32,000 nt of DNA from Candidatus Heimdallarchaeota archaeon B3_Heim (GTDB taxonomy: Archaea; Asgardarchaeota; Heimdallarchaeia; Hodarchaeales; Hodarchaeaceae). Location of the stretch: positions 30,001 to 62,000 of the forward strand of contig NJBF01000016.1 in the NCBI GenBank assembly GCA_003144275.1, written 5' to 3'. The position numbers and the translations under genes are program-made. Position 1 is the first letter of the stretch. Each line of letters begins with the position of its first letter. The notes below the pieces were generated by a model. That model was given only the letters and a program-made list of their open reading frames with translations, was not told the origin of the DNA and made no database searches. Of this stretch, positions 11,036 through 16,500 are shown piece by piece.

Positions 11036-13834
11036 ATGAACGGCCAATGGAAAAATACTTTTGTTTCACTAAGCAACATTAGAAAAAATCTTCTTGCGGT
11101 AAGTTCCACCTCTGATATTTCATCAAATGACTTTGTAAATCAATACCTCTTGCAAATGACAGTTTTATGGACTTTACAGAAACATCGGTACTTCAATGAT
11201 GATGAAAACTATTTTATTACGATGTTCCATTTAATTGAAAAGAAAGATCAAAATATTCCTTTCAATACTTACAATGAGTTTATAAATTCATTATTAATAG
11301 AATTATCCGCATTGAATGATAATCATCTTAGCATAGACCAACGATTTGGGCGATTACGGGGCTGTAAATCTGCGATATTTATCAATATTTCACATTTACA
11401 CAAGAAAGCAAATTTCTCTAATGCAAATTACTACAATTCATTAAAATCGCATTTAAGTGATAATGAAATTTCCAAGTCACTGGGAATATTGACAGTTCTT
11501 GATCGAATAGATTTTGAAATTAACGGAACATTTTTGGGGTCCTTATATGAGTGGTTGATATCATCTAGAACCAAAAGGAAAGGGGGAGTATATTATACTC
11601 CTGTGGAACTAACAGCTTATATTTCGCGCTACTCAGTAAGAACGCTACTAATGGGTCAGTTTGGGGTTAAATCTAGATATTCACCTGATGCTTGGGTTAC
11701 TTATTTCGAGTCCCTTGATAGCACTGGTTTATTAAGATTGTATGAAACATTAATTAATTTAACGATACTAGATCCCGCTGTTGGTACTGGACAATTCTTA
11801 GAAAGTGTTATCGACGAATTATTATCAATATATTCTAACCTAGTCAAAAAATTTAAAGCGCTAAATCTGTCACTACCCCTCAATCTTATTACCAATCGAT
11901 CTTGTAACACTGGAAACCTAATCGATCTTACAAAGATTATAGATCAGACAGAATTTGAATTCTATTTATTAACACATCTGATTTTTCCAAAATCATTATA
12001 TGGAGTAGATATAGACCCTTTTGTCATTCCTTTCACAAAGACTCGGTTATTCATTTCTTTTGCTCACCGAATTAAGCTTCATGAGAAAGATTTTCATTTC
12101 ATTAATCCATTCCAGTGTAATTTAAAGATTGGAGACGCACTTTTGATGGCTTGGGAGGATTTCTTCCCTAAAACATTGACGAAGAAAAATAATTTCTCTC
12201 TTATTCTTACCAATCCCCCTTATATTGGAGAAAGTGACAATAAGGAACTATTTAGGAAATATTCGGTTGCTTATCCTACTTATTATGAGGGAAAACTCAA
12301 CATTTGGTATCTATTTTTTCATTTAGCCCTTAATTTAGTTCAATCTGGAGGTATTGTATCTTTTTTAGTTTCTAATTATTGGTTGACTGCCTCAGGAGCT
12401 TCAAAATTACGTAAAAGAATGCTGCAAGAAACTTTTATTTTAGAATTTATTGATTTTAAAGAAAATCGTTTGTTTGAAGGAGCTCAAGGTATTCATTCTA
12501 GTATAATCACCTTAAAGAAGCTGAAAAAGCAAAATTCATCCATAAATTGTGTTTTCTATACAAAGAAAGAACCAATGAACAATCAGCTTCTAAATAAGAT
12601 GTCAAATCAATTGGTATTCCAAATTAACCAGAAAAATCTTACGTTAAACAATTGGGATGATTATTTTCATTTTCTTCCTTCTGATGTCTCTCTCATACTG
12701 GAAAAGGTAATTAATAGATCCTCCCCTCTTAGAGCTTCAACCTACACAGTAAAAGAAGGACTGATCACAGGGCTTAACAAGATCACTAAACGTCAAGTTG
12801 AGAAATATGGTTACCATTCAACTTGGATAAATCGTGGTATATATGTGTTTGATATTAAAAATATTAATGACCAAAAGACAATTCAGACATTTACGACTGA
12901 GGAAAATAAATATTTACATCCCTTATACAAAAGTTCGTCTATAGTAGATTATTCAACACGAGTTAAGACTGATCAACGCTTTCTTTATCTAGTAAGGAGA
13001 GATGTAGATATTTCCACAATCCCAAATATAAAAAAACATCTTGATCAATATCAAACGGCTACATATAATTCGTTAGATCACCCTCCATACATTAATCGTC
13101 CTCGAAAAAAAGAAATCTTTCTCTCTCCAAAACTTGTGACTCCTCAAAGAGCACGGAAAACACATTTTGGGTATAGCTGCACAGAATGGTTTGCTGCTCA
13201 AGATGTATATTTTGTTCTCGAAGAGAAAAATAATATTCAAAAATTGAAAATTCTCCTTATTCTTCTGCAATCGAAGGTATCTTTCTTTTGGTTCTCTTGG
13301 ATGGGGAAAAAAAAGGGCTCTCAGATGGAGTTTTTTGGTGAGTCAGTTTCAAACTTTCCCATTCCTAAGAAATTGAATAAAGGAGATCTTCTAGCACGGA
13401 TCGCTGATTACTTAATTTTTCTGAACTCCCTAGAAAACAAGCAAAGTGAATATGAACAACTAAGGAGGTTTCTAGAGGAAGGAATCGCTAATATTATTGT
13501 TTATAAGAGTTATTTTAACGACCTTATACTCACTTCTCCAAGTCAAAATCAACTTTACGAGGATGTCTGTGTTTTTCTAGTTAAATCTCTTGAAAAAATT
13601 GACATTGAACATTTTTTAAAAATCCGATATGCCATTTCTGTCACAGAAAATGTTACCACGACTAATAAAACAGAATTCATTAAACTAAAAGAGTCTATCT
13701 TATCTAAAATTAATGCTTCCTTTCATAAATTAGTTTCTGATAAGAGGATTGAAAAATTGAATAGGGAAATAAGCACAAGCCAAATTGTAGAACAGATAGG
13801 CAATTATTATGATTCTAAAAACCATTTAATCTAG
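11036..13834 (+). CDS. Gamma-class N6-adenine DNA methyltransferase (Eco57I/TaqI-like) with C-terminal TRD and no nuclease domain
   Basis: GGVYYTP, motif I ILDPAVGTGQF (~11771), YGVDID, motif IV NPPY (~12212), TaqI_C-like PKLVTPQ. An in-frame TAA just before the ATG rules out an N-terminal extension. Confidence 0.9.
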   Translation: MNGQWKNTFVSLSNIRKNLLAVSSTSDISSNDFVNQYLLQMTVLWTLQKHRYFNDDENYFITMFHLIEKKDQNIPFNTYNEFINSLLIELSALNDNHLSIDQRFGRLRGCKSAIFINISHLHKKANFSNANYYNSLKSHLSDNEISKSLGILTVLDRIDFEINGTFLGSLYEWLISSRTKRKGGVYYTPVELTAYISRYSVRTLLMGQFGVKSRYSPDAWVTYFESLDSTGLLRLYETLINLTILDPAVGTGQFLESVIDELLSIYSNLVKKFKALNLSLPLNLITNRSCNTGNLIDLTKIIDQTEFEFYLLTHLIFPKSLYGVDIDPFVIPFTKTRLFISFAHRIKLHEKDFHFINPFQCNLKIGDALLMAWEDFFPKTLTKKNNFSLILTNPPYIGESDNKELFRKYSVAYPTYYEGKLNIWYLFFHLALNLVQSGGIVSFLVSNYWLTASGASKLRKRMLQETFILEFIDFKENRLFEGAQGIHSSIITLKKLKKQNSSINCVFYTKKEPMNNQLLNKMSNQLVFQINQKNLTLNNWDDYFHFLPSDVSLILEKVINRSSPLRASTYTVKEGLITGLNKITKRQVEKYGYHSTWINRGIYVFDIKNINDQKTIQTFTTEENKYLHPLYKSSSIVDYSTRVKTDQRFLYLVRRDVDISTIPNIKKHLDQYQTATYNSLDHPPYINRPRKKEIFLSPKLVTPQRARKTHFGYSCTEWFAAQDVYFVLEEKNNIQKLKILLILLQSKVSFFWFSWMGKKKGSQMEFFGESVSNFPIPKKLNKGDLLARIADYLIFLNSLENKQSEYEQLRRFLEEGIANIIVYKSYFNDLILTSPSQNQLYEDVCVFLVKSLEKIDIEHFLKIRYAISVTENVTTTNKTEFIKLKESILSKINASFHKLVSDKRIEKLNREISTSQIVEQIGNYYDSKNHLI

Positions 13835-13897: not shown

Positions 13898-14836
13898 TCA
13901 ATTGAAATAATAATTAAGAGATCGTATATGATCTTGAGAGACAATCTTTTTCATTCTTTTCTTAATTGATCTCACATAAGAAACTTGCTCAATTTTTAGG
14001 CAATAATTCTGAGCAGTAAGAAATATCCATACGTTCCATAGTGCACGATTTATCCATCCTCGACTGCCTGGTTGCTGTAATTGTGCAAAATTCTCAAGGA
14101 AAGCTGGTTTATACTTATCAAAAAGTTCTACTGTAAACCATTTCCTAGTTCTTGATGATTTTCTTGCGCTAGGAACTGATCTAGAACCCTCAGGAGTATA
14201 ACAATCTCCAATTGCAGCATTTCTCCTCCATCCGATCCAATCTATTGACTCAAGATTGTTCTTGAACGCCAATTGATGAAAAGGGCTCCCTAACCCAAAT
14301 CCATGAAATTTTTGGTCAGTTATTGAACGAAATTTGGCTAACCAAGCAGCAACATCGAAAACACTTCCTTTTTCGTTAATTTTAAGTGAAGAAACCATTC
14401 CTCCCAATCCGATATTGGAAACTGAATAATCTATTGTATTTATTTTTGGGAAATGAACGACTGGTAATATTGGATGATCTATACTCTGCATTAAAGTAGA
14501 CCAATTGCTAAAAGATCTATACTGATTTCCGATGACATCAAGATTCACAATTATATCACTGTCATATACCCCTATATTCTTAAGAAAATCAGTGTAATTT
14601 TCTAACGAAATTGCGATACCTGAATGATGTGCACTGTAGGCACCAGAGTCAATCATTATAGGCCCATCGAAAGAAAAATAGTCATGCAAACCGATTGCTT
14701 TAATTCTTTGAATGCATTTTCTAAATTGCCAATAAGAAAACAATATTCCAGATTTTTTCTTATGCATACATCGCTTAATTTCATTTTCATATAACCAAGG
14801 AAAAAATCCCTGTACAATACCTAAGTATAATTTCAA
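13898..14836 (-). CDS. TGT-fold guanine transglycosylase, DpdA-like (paralog 1)
   Basis: IDSGAY, NLDVIG, PVVH, GLGGMV, FHGFG and SIDW motifs map onto the TGT barrel catalytic positions; no CxCxxC zinc motif. TTG start. Confidence 0.8.
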   Translation of the reverse strand: MKLYLGIVQGFFPWLYENEIKRCMHKKKSGILFSYWQFRKCIQRIKAIGLHDYFSFDGPIMIDSGAYSAHHSGIAISLENYTDFLKNIGVYDSDIIVNLDVIGNQYRSFSNWSTLMQSIDHPILPVVHFPKINTIDYSVSNIGLGGMVSSLKINEKGSVFDVAAWLAKFRSITDQKFHGFGLGSPFHQLAFKNNLESIDWIGWRRNAAIGDCYTPEGSRSVPSARKSSRTRKWFTVELFDKYKPAFLENFAQLQQPGSRGWINRALWNVWIFLTAQNYCLKIEQVSYVRSIKKRMKKIVSQDHIRSLNYYFN

Positions 14837-14952
14837 AACAAATTTTACCCCTAAATCAATTTAATACATCACAAAAATATGATGGTATCAATCGTATAAT
14901 TACAAATAATTTTCCTCTATAATTAGCTGTGTGATAATAAAGGTGTAAATAT

Positions 14953-15426
14953 ATGTCACCGCCAAAATACCTCCTCATTATTTCATGTGGGAAGAAAAAA
15001 TCGGAGGAACTCAAACATCATGCTTTGAAAGCAGAGGAGGCATATAAAGGACCAATGTTTCAAGTCATAAACAAAGCGAAAAGGGAAAATAGGTGGGGTG
15101 ATAATCTGAAACTAGGCGTCGTGTCAGCAAAATATGGATTCTTACGAGAAAGTGACTTAATCACCTACTATGATCTTAAAATGACGAAACCTATTGCCAA
15201 ACAGCTTCATTCGAAAGTAATTGAGAGTATTCGAAGTTGGTATTACGCTGAATTATTTTCATTAATATATGTGATCATGGGTAAGGATTATTTAGCAAGC
15301 GTGAAAGGATTGGAAGATTACATTAAAACCGATGTCAGAATTGAGAATATGGGAGGATTAGGCCTTGGACAGCGAAAACTCTTGGATTTCCTCAATTCAA
15401 TTGATATTTCTGGTTTAGATTCGTGA
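14953..15426 (+). CDS. DUF6884/YaaA-like protein
   Basis: LLIISCGKKK...AEEAYKGPMF...VVSAKYGF...YYDLKM...MGKDY signature. A GGTG RBS lies upstream. Confidence 0.75.
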   Translation: MSPPKYLLIISCGKKKSEELKHHALKAEEAYKGPMFQVINKAKRENRWGDNLKLGVVSAKYGFLRESDLITYYDLKMTKPIAKQLHSKVIESIRSWYYAELFSLIYVIMGKDYLASVKGLEDYIKTDVRIENMGGLGLGQRKLLDFLNSIDISGLDS

Positions 15427-15438
15427 GGAGAAGAAAAA

Positions 15439-16500
15439 ATGAGCTTCGCTTTAGGAACTCCCATCAATGCTCGAATAAGACCTTGGAAATATGATTGGAT
15501 TGTAAAACCTGATTCTTTGATGATCTCCGCCATCGATTTAATGGAAAATTCAAGTTTATTTGAGAAAATAAAGAAAATAGGGGTTCACGAGTATTTAGAA
15601 TGGGACGGTCCTCTAGTCTGTGATTCTGGAGCGTTTTCTGCCATTAATCGAAAGAAGAAGATCAATGTTGAACTCGAACAATTAAAACTGTATTATCGAG
15701 AGTTAACAAGACAAGATCCAAATATTATCAAAATTACATTAGATTATCCTGATGAGAATATCCTCTCAAATTATTTAGAATTACTTCCGTATGAGATCCA
15801 ACCAGTCATTCCTTATAACCAATTACAGATTTTGGAACAAATAGTAACAGAATCTGGATTACCTGAGTGGAGCTTCATTGGACGCTTAGTTCCTTTAATG
15901 AGAGGAGGTAGTGGATATAAAAATAGATTATTTTCTGCTATCAACGATTTTAAAAACAAATTAGATGAAATTTCTTATAATGAAAAATGTAGAATATGGG
16001 CCTTGGGAGTAGGTGCGCCTAGTATTTTAACCGAGGTATTGACAGCCGTGGATGGATGTGATTCATCTCGTTGGAGAATTACTGGCTCTAATATGATTTT
16101 ACTTCCGCATGGAGGGGAACGTGGAGTTGGTAACAAGACTAAATGGAGGGGAACTCATCGTAGAATTGAAGAGGGGGATGAAAAAATGTTGGTTTTACAA
16201 ATTTTACAACAAATAGATACTCTCTCAGGAGGATTAGAAACTCTTGATAAATCATTATGGTTTAATAAGAATCCTAAACAGCTTAAAAATCATTTTGAAG
16301 TAAATTTACCAAGTATTGGAAAGCTTATAGAAAAATTAAGAAACAATATTCAAACAATGACGGTTTACGACTTAGAATTGTTATTAAGAAGTTCTGGAAA
16401 TCTACGTCTTATATTCAATTACTTTGCTGCATTGCATTACAAGCTAGAAGAAAGAGATAATACTAATTATGAGAACAATAATCCATACTTCATAATCTAG
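15439..16500 (+). CDS. TGT-fold guanine transglycosylase-like protein, DpdA-like (paralog 2, altered pocket)
   Basis: CDSGAF, TLDYP, WALGVG and DGCDSSRW motifs. GVHEYLEWDGPLVCDSGAFSA aligns with paralog 1 GLHDYFSFDGPIMIDSGAYSA. No zinc motif. Confidence 0.78.
   Translation: MSFALGTPINARIRPWKYDWIVKPDSLMISAIDLMENSSLFEKIKKIGVHEYLEWDGPLVCDSGAFSAINRKKKINVELEQLKLYYRELTRQDPNIIKITLDYPDENILSNYLELLPYEIQPVIPYNQLQILEQIVTESGLPEWSFIGRLVPLMRGGSGYKNRLFSAINDFKNKLDEISYNEKCRIWALGVGAPSILTEVLTAVDGCDSSRWRITGSNMILLPHGGERGVGNKTKWRGTHRRIEEGDEKMLVLQILQQIDTLSGGLETLDKSLWFNKNPKQLKNHFEVNLPSIGKLIEKLRNNIQTMTVYDLELLLRSSGNLRLIFNYFAALHYKLEERDNTNYENNNPYFII

Follow-up and report, generated by a model that had tools for sequence, protein, structure and literature searches.

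The stretch of DNA analysed here, hereafter the window, comprises 32,000 nucleotides (nt) of contig NJBF01000016.1 (positions 30,001 to 62,000) of Candidatus Heimdallarchaeota archaeon B3_Heim, and it contains genes for two proteins with the fold of tRNA-guanine transglycosylases (TGTs), P1 and P2, the latter accompanied by a DUF6884 protein and a large DNA methyltransferase. The reading proposed for these genes, whose chances we judge to be about even, is that of a chromosomal base-exchange module acting on nucleic acids, passed on by vertical descent and equipped with two active transglycosylases; it would most likely be directed at DNA, and P2 would have an altered specificity. Catalysis by P1 or P2, DNA as the substrate and the identity of the base are all inferred from sequence. 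The evidence consists of the catalytic residues kept by both proteins, an asymmetry of their base pockets that is fixed within each family, the proximity of P1 to phage DNA transglycosylases, and the conservation of the module throughout a genus.

Active-site motifs and asymmetry of the base pocket

To begin with, P1 (13898..14836, minus strand; 312 aa, TTG start) is predicted to be a DpdA-type transglycosylase that lacks zinc and has a canonical pocket, and presented the motifs IDSGAYSA (D63), VNLDVIG (D100), LPVVHFP (H128), GLGGMV (G145-G146), FHGFGLG (H178) and ESIDWIGW (D199). The corresponding motifs of the zinc-less TGT-fold protein P2 (15439..16500, plus strand; 353 aa) were CDSGAFSA (D62), ITLDYPD (D102), QPVIPYN (P125), FIGRLVPLM (G148-R149), IWALGVG (W187) and DGCDSSRW (D208). 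The base-stacking aromatic was Y67 in P1 and F66 in P2, the equivalent of a Phe in Escherichia coli Tgt. A previous reading of the letters, hereafter the sequence-only reading, had assigned three active-site Asp (of DSG, of LD and at the nucleophile position) to both proteins, together with PVVH, GG and HGFG to P1 and PVIP, GR and WALG to P2, and all of these were found as described. Moreover, the quoted P1 residues were invariant across 27 P1 sequences and those of P2 across 29 P2 sequences, so the pocket asymmetry is a fixed family trait and not a matter of chance. Among the same 29 sequences, D62/S63/G64, D102 and D208 were also invariant, and F66 was present in at least 90%.

The mapping of these motifs onto each other proved correct. 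The profile-profile alignment of the P1 and P2 families by hhalign (probability of 98%, E-value of 1.4e-13, 201 columns) paired them one to one, namely DSGAY with DSGAF, NLD with TLD, PVVH with PVIP, GLGGMV with IGRLVP, HGFGLGSP with WALGVGAP, and IDWIGWRRNAA with CDSSRWRITGS. The same correspondence was obtained in a MAFFT alignment of 22 sequences, which comprised P1, P2, E. coli Tgt, the arcTGT of the window's own genome, the DpdAs of STSV1 and of a mycobacteriophage, and Asgard TGT-like proteins. The sole invariant columns in it were the DSG, the second Asp, the first Gly of GG, the Gly of xGxG and the nucleophile Asp. Furthermore, the comparison with Zymomonas mobilis TGT using HMMER placed P1 D63 on D102 and P1 D199 on D280.

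Three positions of the pocket set P2 apart. The residue following the PV strand was Gln in Tgt and arcTGT, His in the DpdA-type proteins including P1, and Pro in P2; the residue before GxG was Tyr in E. coli Tgt, His in arcTGT and the DpdA-type proteins including P1, and Trp in P2. At the second Gly of GG, E. coli Tgt, P1 and the phage proteins had Gly, the own arcTGT and the other Asgard TGT-like proteins had Ser, and P2 had Arg. Regarding this last position, the suggestion that P2 carries Arg where the base-contacting Gly normally stands was borne out to the extent that Arg was restricted to P2 among the sequences compared, but Gly is not strictly required there, as working relatives tolerate Ser. 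In particular, the own arcTGT (L005:1303-3396, contig C38 of genome G000; open frame of 697 aa) presented Gly-Ser (IGSVVPYLE) in the base loop.

In agreement with the sequence-only reading, the CxCxxC..H zinc site was missing from both proteins, as the four Cys of P1 and the three of P2 were scattered. Within the 22-sequence alignment, only E. coli Tgt and the own arcTGT presented that motif, and the phage DpdAs compared were also devoid of it, so the lack of zinc is a trait of the phage-type family and not a peculiarity of P1 and P2.

Fold and family membership

P1 and P2 scored below the curated TGT thresholds, and PDB searches, run from single sequences as well as from profiles, returned only sub-threshold matches around the DSG region, so a comparison of folds was needed for any assignment to the TGTs. 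The AlphaFold2 models had confidence values (pLDDT) of 87.8 for P1 (27-sequence alignment) and 85.8 for P2 (29-sequence alignment). The top five structural matches of both were the archaeal TGT 1iq8, DpdA 7ui4, the bacterial TGT 3unt, QTRT2 6fv5 and Cap10 9ntn, with Z-scores ranging from 23.5 to 17.4 for P1 (23.5, 20.3 and 19.6 for the first three) and from 18.9 to 12.9 for P2 (18.9, 16.6 and 16.4, respectively), compared to about 12 for unrelated TIM barrels. Foldseek gave a probability of 1.00 for the TGT fold. According to these models, both P1 and P2 belong to the TGT superfamily at the level of the fold. Their earlier description as TGT paralogs is valid only for the superfamily; they were not sisters in the maximum likelihood tree described below, and BLASTP found 30% identity between them over 105 aa.

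Relationship to phage transglycosylases

About 60 close relatives were found for each of P1 and P2, all from metagenome-assembled genomes of Heimdall/Hodarchaeales type and without names or Pfam domains, and 20 contigs carried relatives of both. A profile search with the P1 family over 1.84 billion representatives recovered 3666 proteins at E<=1e-3, mostly 250-330 aa long, of which six reached E<=1e-30. P1 matched phrog_887, the phage family annotated as queuine tRNA-ribosyltransferase that corresponds to DpdA, with an E-value of 6.4e-20 over residues 14-284 (271 residues), while P2 matched it at 4.4e-5 with no single stretch passing, its membership among the viral DpdAs thus being borderline. 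Furthermore, 124 phage records were matched by P1 using tblastn. In mycobacteriophage Eaglehorse, the P1 homologue sits between a ParB-like gene and QueC, QueD, QueE and FolE, which is a textbook viral cassette for 7-deazaguanine in DNA. By contrast, P2 had no tblastn match among 50,697 phage records, and a scan of IMG/VR with the patterns [IL]GRLVPLM and W[AT]LG[VI]GAP gave 21 pattern matches, none of which was confirmed. For DUF6884, a single weak phage match was found (Acinetobacter phage HD01, E-value of 3e-3), from which no linkage of DUF6884 to DpdA in phages emerges.

A maximum likelihood tree was built from 91 sequences and 271 columns (LG+C20+F+G4 by posterior mean site frequencies). 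In it, P1 (support of 100/99) was nested, with four metagenomic sequences, inside a phage-type clade (100/99), and P2 (100/100), on a stem of 1.38 substitutions per site, was the sister of that whole clade (100/93). A quick tree gave a misleading placement of P1 and P2, the constrained tree being 43.55 log-likelihood units better, and it was discarded. The two genes may go back to a duplication in place, after which P2 changed fast, or may have separate origins, and neither history can be claimed from these sequences. Among DpdAs of the viral kind, P1 is a new cellular representative, and P2 would represent a new subfamily of that kind, its pocket having no match among the relatives compared.

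Conservation of the module and selection

Strong matches in a sample of 201 genomes of the phylum were confined to the window's own genus, of which 22 genomes were used for the synteny counts. P2 appeared in 21 of them, and so did DUF6884, which in all 21 cases immediately preceded P2 in the same orientation. The large methyltransferase was present in 20 genomes, downstream of P2 on the same contig and strand in 18 of the 21 and on other contigs in two, while G210 had none. P1 appeared in 18 genomes, always divergent from DUF6884, at a distance of about 1.1 kb or less in 16 and of 12 kb in two (G102 and G211). The only genome of the genus with no gene of the module was a 1.4-Mb assembly that is 71% complete. 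The tightest unit is thus that of DUF6884, P2 and the methyltransferase, rather than that of P1 and P2.

When the window's genome was compared with G107, the closest relative sampled, the ratio of nonsynonymous to synonymous substitution rates (dN/dS) was 0.17 for P1, 0.19 for DUF6884, 0.10 for P2 and 0.26 for the methyltransferase. Moreover, the conservation of P2 exceeded that of P1 by 8-10 points on the 20 shared contigs. All four genes are under purifying selection, which is strongest for P2, and P2 is no decaying copy.

Some variants of the module were also observed. An extended form (L001, CP070695-type) had a 533-aa protein without Pfam match, a DUF362 gene and a major facilitator superfamily transporter between P1, P2 and the methyltransferase (L001:3691-5292 and L001:6971-7873); these additional genes may provide further steps of the pathway or import the base. 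On contig C1 of G210 (L023:2880-4604, minus strand), P2 ends at about residue 294 and continues in frame into a partial ornithine/aspartate carbamoyltransferase, giving an open reading frame (ORF) of 574 aa that is either a deletion breaking the module or an assembly chimera. A search for longer, fused versions of DUF6884 returned none, which is weak evidence.

Organization of the locus and operon partners

The divergent gap between P1 and the operon (14837..14952) is AT-rich and 116 nt long, and it presumably holds bidirectional promoters. The operon consists of the DUF6884 protein (14953..15426, plus strand; 157 aa), of the YaaA/DpdC-like fold family, P2, and, as its third gene, a type III Mod-like N6/N4 DNA methyltransferase (16513..18930, plus strand; 805 aa), P2 starting 12 nt past the stop of DUF6884 and the methyltransferase 12 nt past that of P2. 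The first of these proteins matched Pfam PF21818 with an E-value of 4.2e-10 and 40.3 bits, above the cut-off of 30 for membership, and also YaaA (PF03883, 1.6e-6) and the PADLOC models PDC-M57A (6e-8) and DpdC (1.3e-4). It presented both motifs by which the family has been defined (PMC11701544), CxxxK (C12..K16) and LSAxxG (as VSAKYG), and, according to the model of the Pfam curators, a member of this family flips a nucleotide into a cleft (PMC11701544). The 805-aa methyltransferase matched N6_N4_Mtase of Pfam (6e-41) and MTase_III of PADLOC (1.3e-53); the former matched in two stretches, and the N-terminal 380 residues only weakly.

On the other side, an Eco57I/MmeI-type methyltransferase with a TaqI_C specificity domain in Pfam (11036..13834, plus strand; 932 aa) is convergent with P1. 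It also adjoins the module in L002 and L003, with 40% identity, and gives way to another methyltransferase-like gene in L001, being thus a looser neighbour. In L002 and L003, which belong to a related species, a SIR2-family gene (L002:8985-9746 and L003:8985-9746) stands between P1 and the Eco57I-type methyltransferase, and the window is devoid of it. The wider flanks are of housekeeping kind, with TFIIB, an HflX-type GTPase and YjbQ, all three shared with L002 and L003, in addition to a subtilase. Within the window, no nuclease or helicase genes were found around the module. The PADLOC search with the five proteins of the locus returned neither DpdA nor DpdB, the sole Dpd match being the weak one of DUF6884 to the N-terminal part of DpdC.

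Supply of the donor base

A search of 21 genomes of the genus gave no QueC at E<=1e-10, the same search being positive in 9 of 14 control genomes, and QueE was likewise not found in the searches of base-supply genes. The best QueC-like ORF, which lies on contig C55 beside a PTPS-like gene, was rejected as ThiI-like (151.8 bits vs. 24.5 for QueC). On the other hand, genome G000 had three genes related to 7-deazaguanine salvage, namely arcTGT (258 bits), ArcS (145 bits) and a YhhQ/Vut_1-type transporter (123 bits), the regions noted being C38:9654-10628, C38:53991-54464 and C44:6094-6627. The YhhQ family imports preQ0 and preQ1. With these genes present and neither QueC nor QueE recovered, it is plausible that the donor base is salvaged as a 7-deazaguanine precursor, and the genus appears to depend on salvaged precursors of that kind for archaeosine. 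It should be reminded that the DNA of STSV-2 carries dCDG while both virus and host are devoid of the pathway (10.1101/2023.04.13.536721).

Proposed mechanism and alternative explanations

Under the base-exchange reading, P1 would flip out a guanine, form a covalent intermediate between Asp199 and the deoxyribose, and install a guanine-like base of the 7-deazaguanine type; a covalent mechanism through Asp has been proposed for DpdA (PMC10164549). P2 would perform the same chemistry with D62, D102, D208 and F66 on a different base, on the product or at a different step, its specificity being set by the rebuilt edge that reads O6 and N7 (P125, R149 and W187). The translationally coupled DUF6884 protein, with a YaaA/DpdC-like, DNA-binding and base-flipping fold, would be the partner of P2 and would help to flip or to finish the base in the manner of DpdC, while the methyltransferase would add a second mark or supply site recognition, and the donor base would probably be salvaged. 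DNA is favoured as the target because of the operonic N6/N4 methyltransferase, the Eco57I-type neighbour and the kinship of DUF6884 with the DNA-binding YaaA and with DpdC. Since no nuclease is attached, the module would be one of self-marking, either epigenetic or protective, and not a complete restriction system. The sequence-only reading had offered the recognition of a different base by P2 as one of two options, and this option is consistent with the three Asp and F66 being kept, with the three invariant changes of the pocket and with the dN/dS of 0.10.

Several points weigh against the base-exchange reading. The activity of P2 and the DNA substrate are deduced from residues and gene context, and base binding could just as well be lost in P2 through its Arg at the GG position and its Pro at that of His/Gln. 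P1 and P2 obtained 12.6 and 15.0 bits with the Pfam TGT family (PF01702, cut-off of 26.3), and 15.6 and 19.2 bits with tgt_general of NCBIfam (TIGR00449, cut-off of 47.6). Moreover, their assignment to bacterial DpdA (PF23859) or DpdA4 (DUF6610) was discarded, as no Pfam match was found at E<=1. The position of P2 in the tree depends on its very long branch, and forcing P1 and P2 to be sisters was 39 log-likelihood units worse but was not rejected by the approximately unbiased test (P-value of 0.094). Furthermore, no de novo 7-deazaguanine pathway turned up, and the fixation across the genus in a housekeeping context would also suit a pathway of RNA modification.

The latter possibility, that P1 and P2 are lineage-specific RNA transglycosylases modifying tRNA or rRNA, the methyltransferases being unrelated or acting on RNA, seems quite unlikely to us. 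It would agree with the presence of the module in nearly all genomes of the genus and with the window having no nuclease or other defence gene attached to it, and, to our knowledge, tRNA is the substrate of every cellular TGT outside Dpd that has been characterised biochemically. However, the nearest characterised relatives of P1 are phage DNA transglycosylases, the operon includes a DNA methyltransferase of the type III Mod kind, and DUF6884 is akin to DNA-binding proteins; in addition, neither a PUA nor any other RNA-binding domain was found in the Pfam and NCBIfam scans, and the genome already has canonical arcTGT and ArcS. A third explanation, in which P2 and DUF6884 form a DNA glycosylase or lesion processor on a TGT scaffold, the Asp nucleophile removing the base and water resolving the intermediate, is in our view very unlikely. 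Such an activity could proofread or erase the mark of P1 or attack foreign modified DNA, and it would explain a rebuilt base-reading edge next to an intact set of catalytic Asp. We know of no glycosylase with the TGT fold, the module has neither AP endonuclease nor lyase, and the proposal is derived purely from residues. Nevertheless, YfjM of Bacillus subtilis, a DUF6884 member, is reportedly among the binders of abasic and RNA-base lesions (PMC11701544), and defence glycosylases against 7-deazaguanine DNA exist on other folds (10.1101/2025.10.29.685425).

The other option of the sequence-only reading, a scaffold or accessory role of P2, corresponds to an obligate heterodimer in which P1 would be catalytic and P2 a non-catalytic partner holding the nucleic acid, like QTRT1/QTRT2, and is disfavoured here; we consider the heterodimer unlikely. 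The joint presence of P1 and P2 in 18 of the 22 genomes and on 20 shared contigs, as well as the three altered pocket positions of P2, would suit it, and the doubling recurs in the Heimdall-class locus L013, where another TGT-like family is present in tandem, in two copies that are motif-symmetric, though. The zinc subdomain, which in Z. mobilis TGT carries the dimer hot spot W326/Y330/H333, is however missing from both P1 and P2. While bacterial and archaeal TGTs are homodimers and the eukaryotic one is a heterodimer, QTRT2 has lost both catalytic Asp (D279->E272 and D105->C94) as well as the queuine site (PMC6165067), whereas P2 retains its three Asp and the stacking aromatic and is under tighter constraint than P1. 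Moreover, bacterial DpdA is monomeric by small-angle X-ray scattering and depends on a ParB-like ATPase instead of a paralog (PMC10164549), and phage DpdA2 by itself suffices for base insertion in E. coli (10.1101/2023.04.13.536721). P1-type genes stand solitary in L004 and L016-L018, and P2 is in an operon with DUF6884 and the methyltransferase and not with P1, which in G102 and G211 lies away from it. A prediction of the P1+P2 complex with both family alignments scored 0.00, the controls were not run, and it counts as evidence for neither side. A dead scaffold is thus an unlikely role for P2. The parallel that had been drawn with the eukaryotic pair is superficial and without homology, P1 belonging to the phage DpdA radiation and not to the QTRT lineage.

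A more specific form of the base-exchange reading can be put forward tentatively, although we regard it as doubtful. Hodarchaeales chromosomes would carry one or two undescribed non-canonical bases, written after replication by two DNA transglycosylases, the P2 pocket selecting a base other than preQ0, with DUF6884 as the base-flipping or finishing partner and a pseudo-dimeric Mod-like methyltransferase directing or complementing the mark, in a genus-wide epigenetic system of housekeeping kind, fed by salvage, in organisms closely related to eukaryotes.

Comparison with known systems and implications

Viral DpdAs (DpdA1/DpdA2, of the mycobacteriophage Rosebush type and from STSV1/2) resemble P1 in being zinc-less TIM barrels of about 260-350 aa with the DSG Asp, a second Asp, His, GG, HGxG and a nucleophile Asp. 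Their pocket (His after the PV strand, GG loop and HGxG) is found in P1 but not in P2, whose Pro/Arg/Trp combination was absent from every viral sequence compared. Unlike them, P1 and P2 are cellular, chromosomal and vertically inherited, in two divergent copies, and have DUF6884 and a Mod-like methyltransferase as partners instead of adjacent FolE, QueD, QueE and QueC. The bacterial Dpd system (Salmonella Montevideo, 7UI4, PMC10164549) likewise pairs a TGT-fold DNA transglycosylase with a protein of the YaaA superfamily, there DpdC and here DUF6884, and residues D95, D130, H181-G182, G206-G207 and D256 of its DpdA correspond to D63, D100, H128, G145-G146 and D199 of P1. In contrast, the module has neither the ParB-like ATPase DpdB nor the restriction genes DpdD-K, bacterial DpdA has about 410 aa and a structural zinc site that is found in neither P1 nor P2, and DUF6884 is half the size of DpdC, which it matched weakly.

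The QTRT1/QTRT2 system also has two TGT-fold proteins per organism, the pocket of one being canonical and that of the other altered, and uses a salvaged base, but both of its proteins keep the zinc subdomain and act on tRNA, and P1 and P2 fell outside their lineage in the tree. The pairs of arcTGT with ArcS and of viral DpdA with ArcS2 provide a precedent for a second protein that tailors the inserted base after the transglycosylase, and ArcS has a TGT-like N-terminal domain (10.1101/2023.04.13.536721). The assignment of P2 to ArcS/ArcS2 was nonetheless discarded, as the DUF5591 (C1) domain in which their activity lies was missing from it in Pfam, and the genome encodes its own ArcS elsewhere. 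In the literature, nothing was found on DUF6884 with TGT, on PDC-M57, on 7-deazaguanine in Asgard DNA or on a module of P1 and DUF6884-P2-methyltransferase.

Marks of 7-deazaguanine in DNA have been described in phages and in bacterial Dpd islands of sporadic occurrence. Under the base-exchange reading, a virus-type DNA transglycosylase would have been domesticated and fixed across an Asgard genus without a nuclease, next to a strongly conserved second copy whose base pocket is unlike that of every relative compared. Activity of either enzyme on DNA would mean that chromosomes of close relatives of eukaryotes contain an unrecognised base, with effects on sequencing, restriction and polymerase behaviour, and new tools for base exchange could be obtained. 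Moreover, P2 is a natural experiment at the positions reading O6 and N7, and bears on how base specificity changes in the TGT fold.

Related genes in other contexts

A solitary P1 orthologue (P0062), 46% identical and with all motifs intact, was found on a scaffold of 145 kb (ENA ERZ23498442 scaffold_46; L004:1-16924). It lies in a block with many short same-strand ORFs, a DEAD/ResIII helicase and two N6/N4 methyltransferases, beyond which there are sugar/teichoic-type genes (PIG-L, hexapeptide transferase, glycosyltransferases, Asn synthase and cytidylyltransferase). P2, DUF6884 and the large methyltransferase were all missing within 8 kb of P0062, and the block looks like a virus or other mobile element with a host-type DpdA. 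P1-type genes also stood alone in L016-L018, and the contexts of the nearest relatives outside the family (P0136-P0138) were short or uninformative.

Finally, TGT-like genes of zinc type were found in the same archaeal class (the tandem P0283/P0284 in G086 and P0285 in G074), likewise adjoining N6/N4 methyltransferases, and their motif GIGSLVPLMR resembles FIGRLVPLMR of P2. They differ from P1 and P2 in scoring above the Pfam TGT cut-off, in their length of about 390 aa and in keeping a CxCxxH remnant and the His, the two G086 copies being near-identical in their motifs. These genes appeared in variable Heimdall-class defence islands (L013:4478-14991 on G086:C13, and L014:669-10407 on G074:C1), where their neighbours were N6/N4 methyltransferases, a PLD/NgoFVII-like nuclease, AIPR, STAND NTPases, a TIR-Ras protein, UvrD and a PD-(D/E)XK nuclease.

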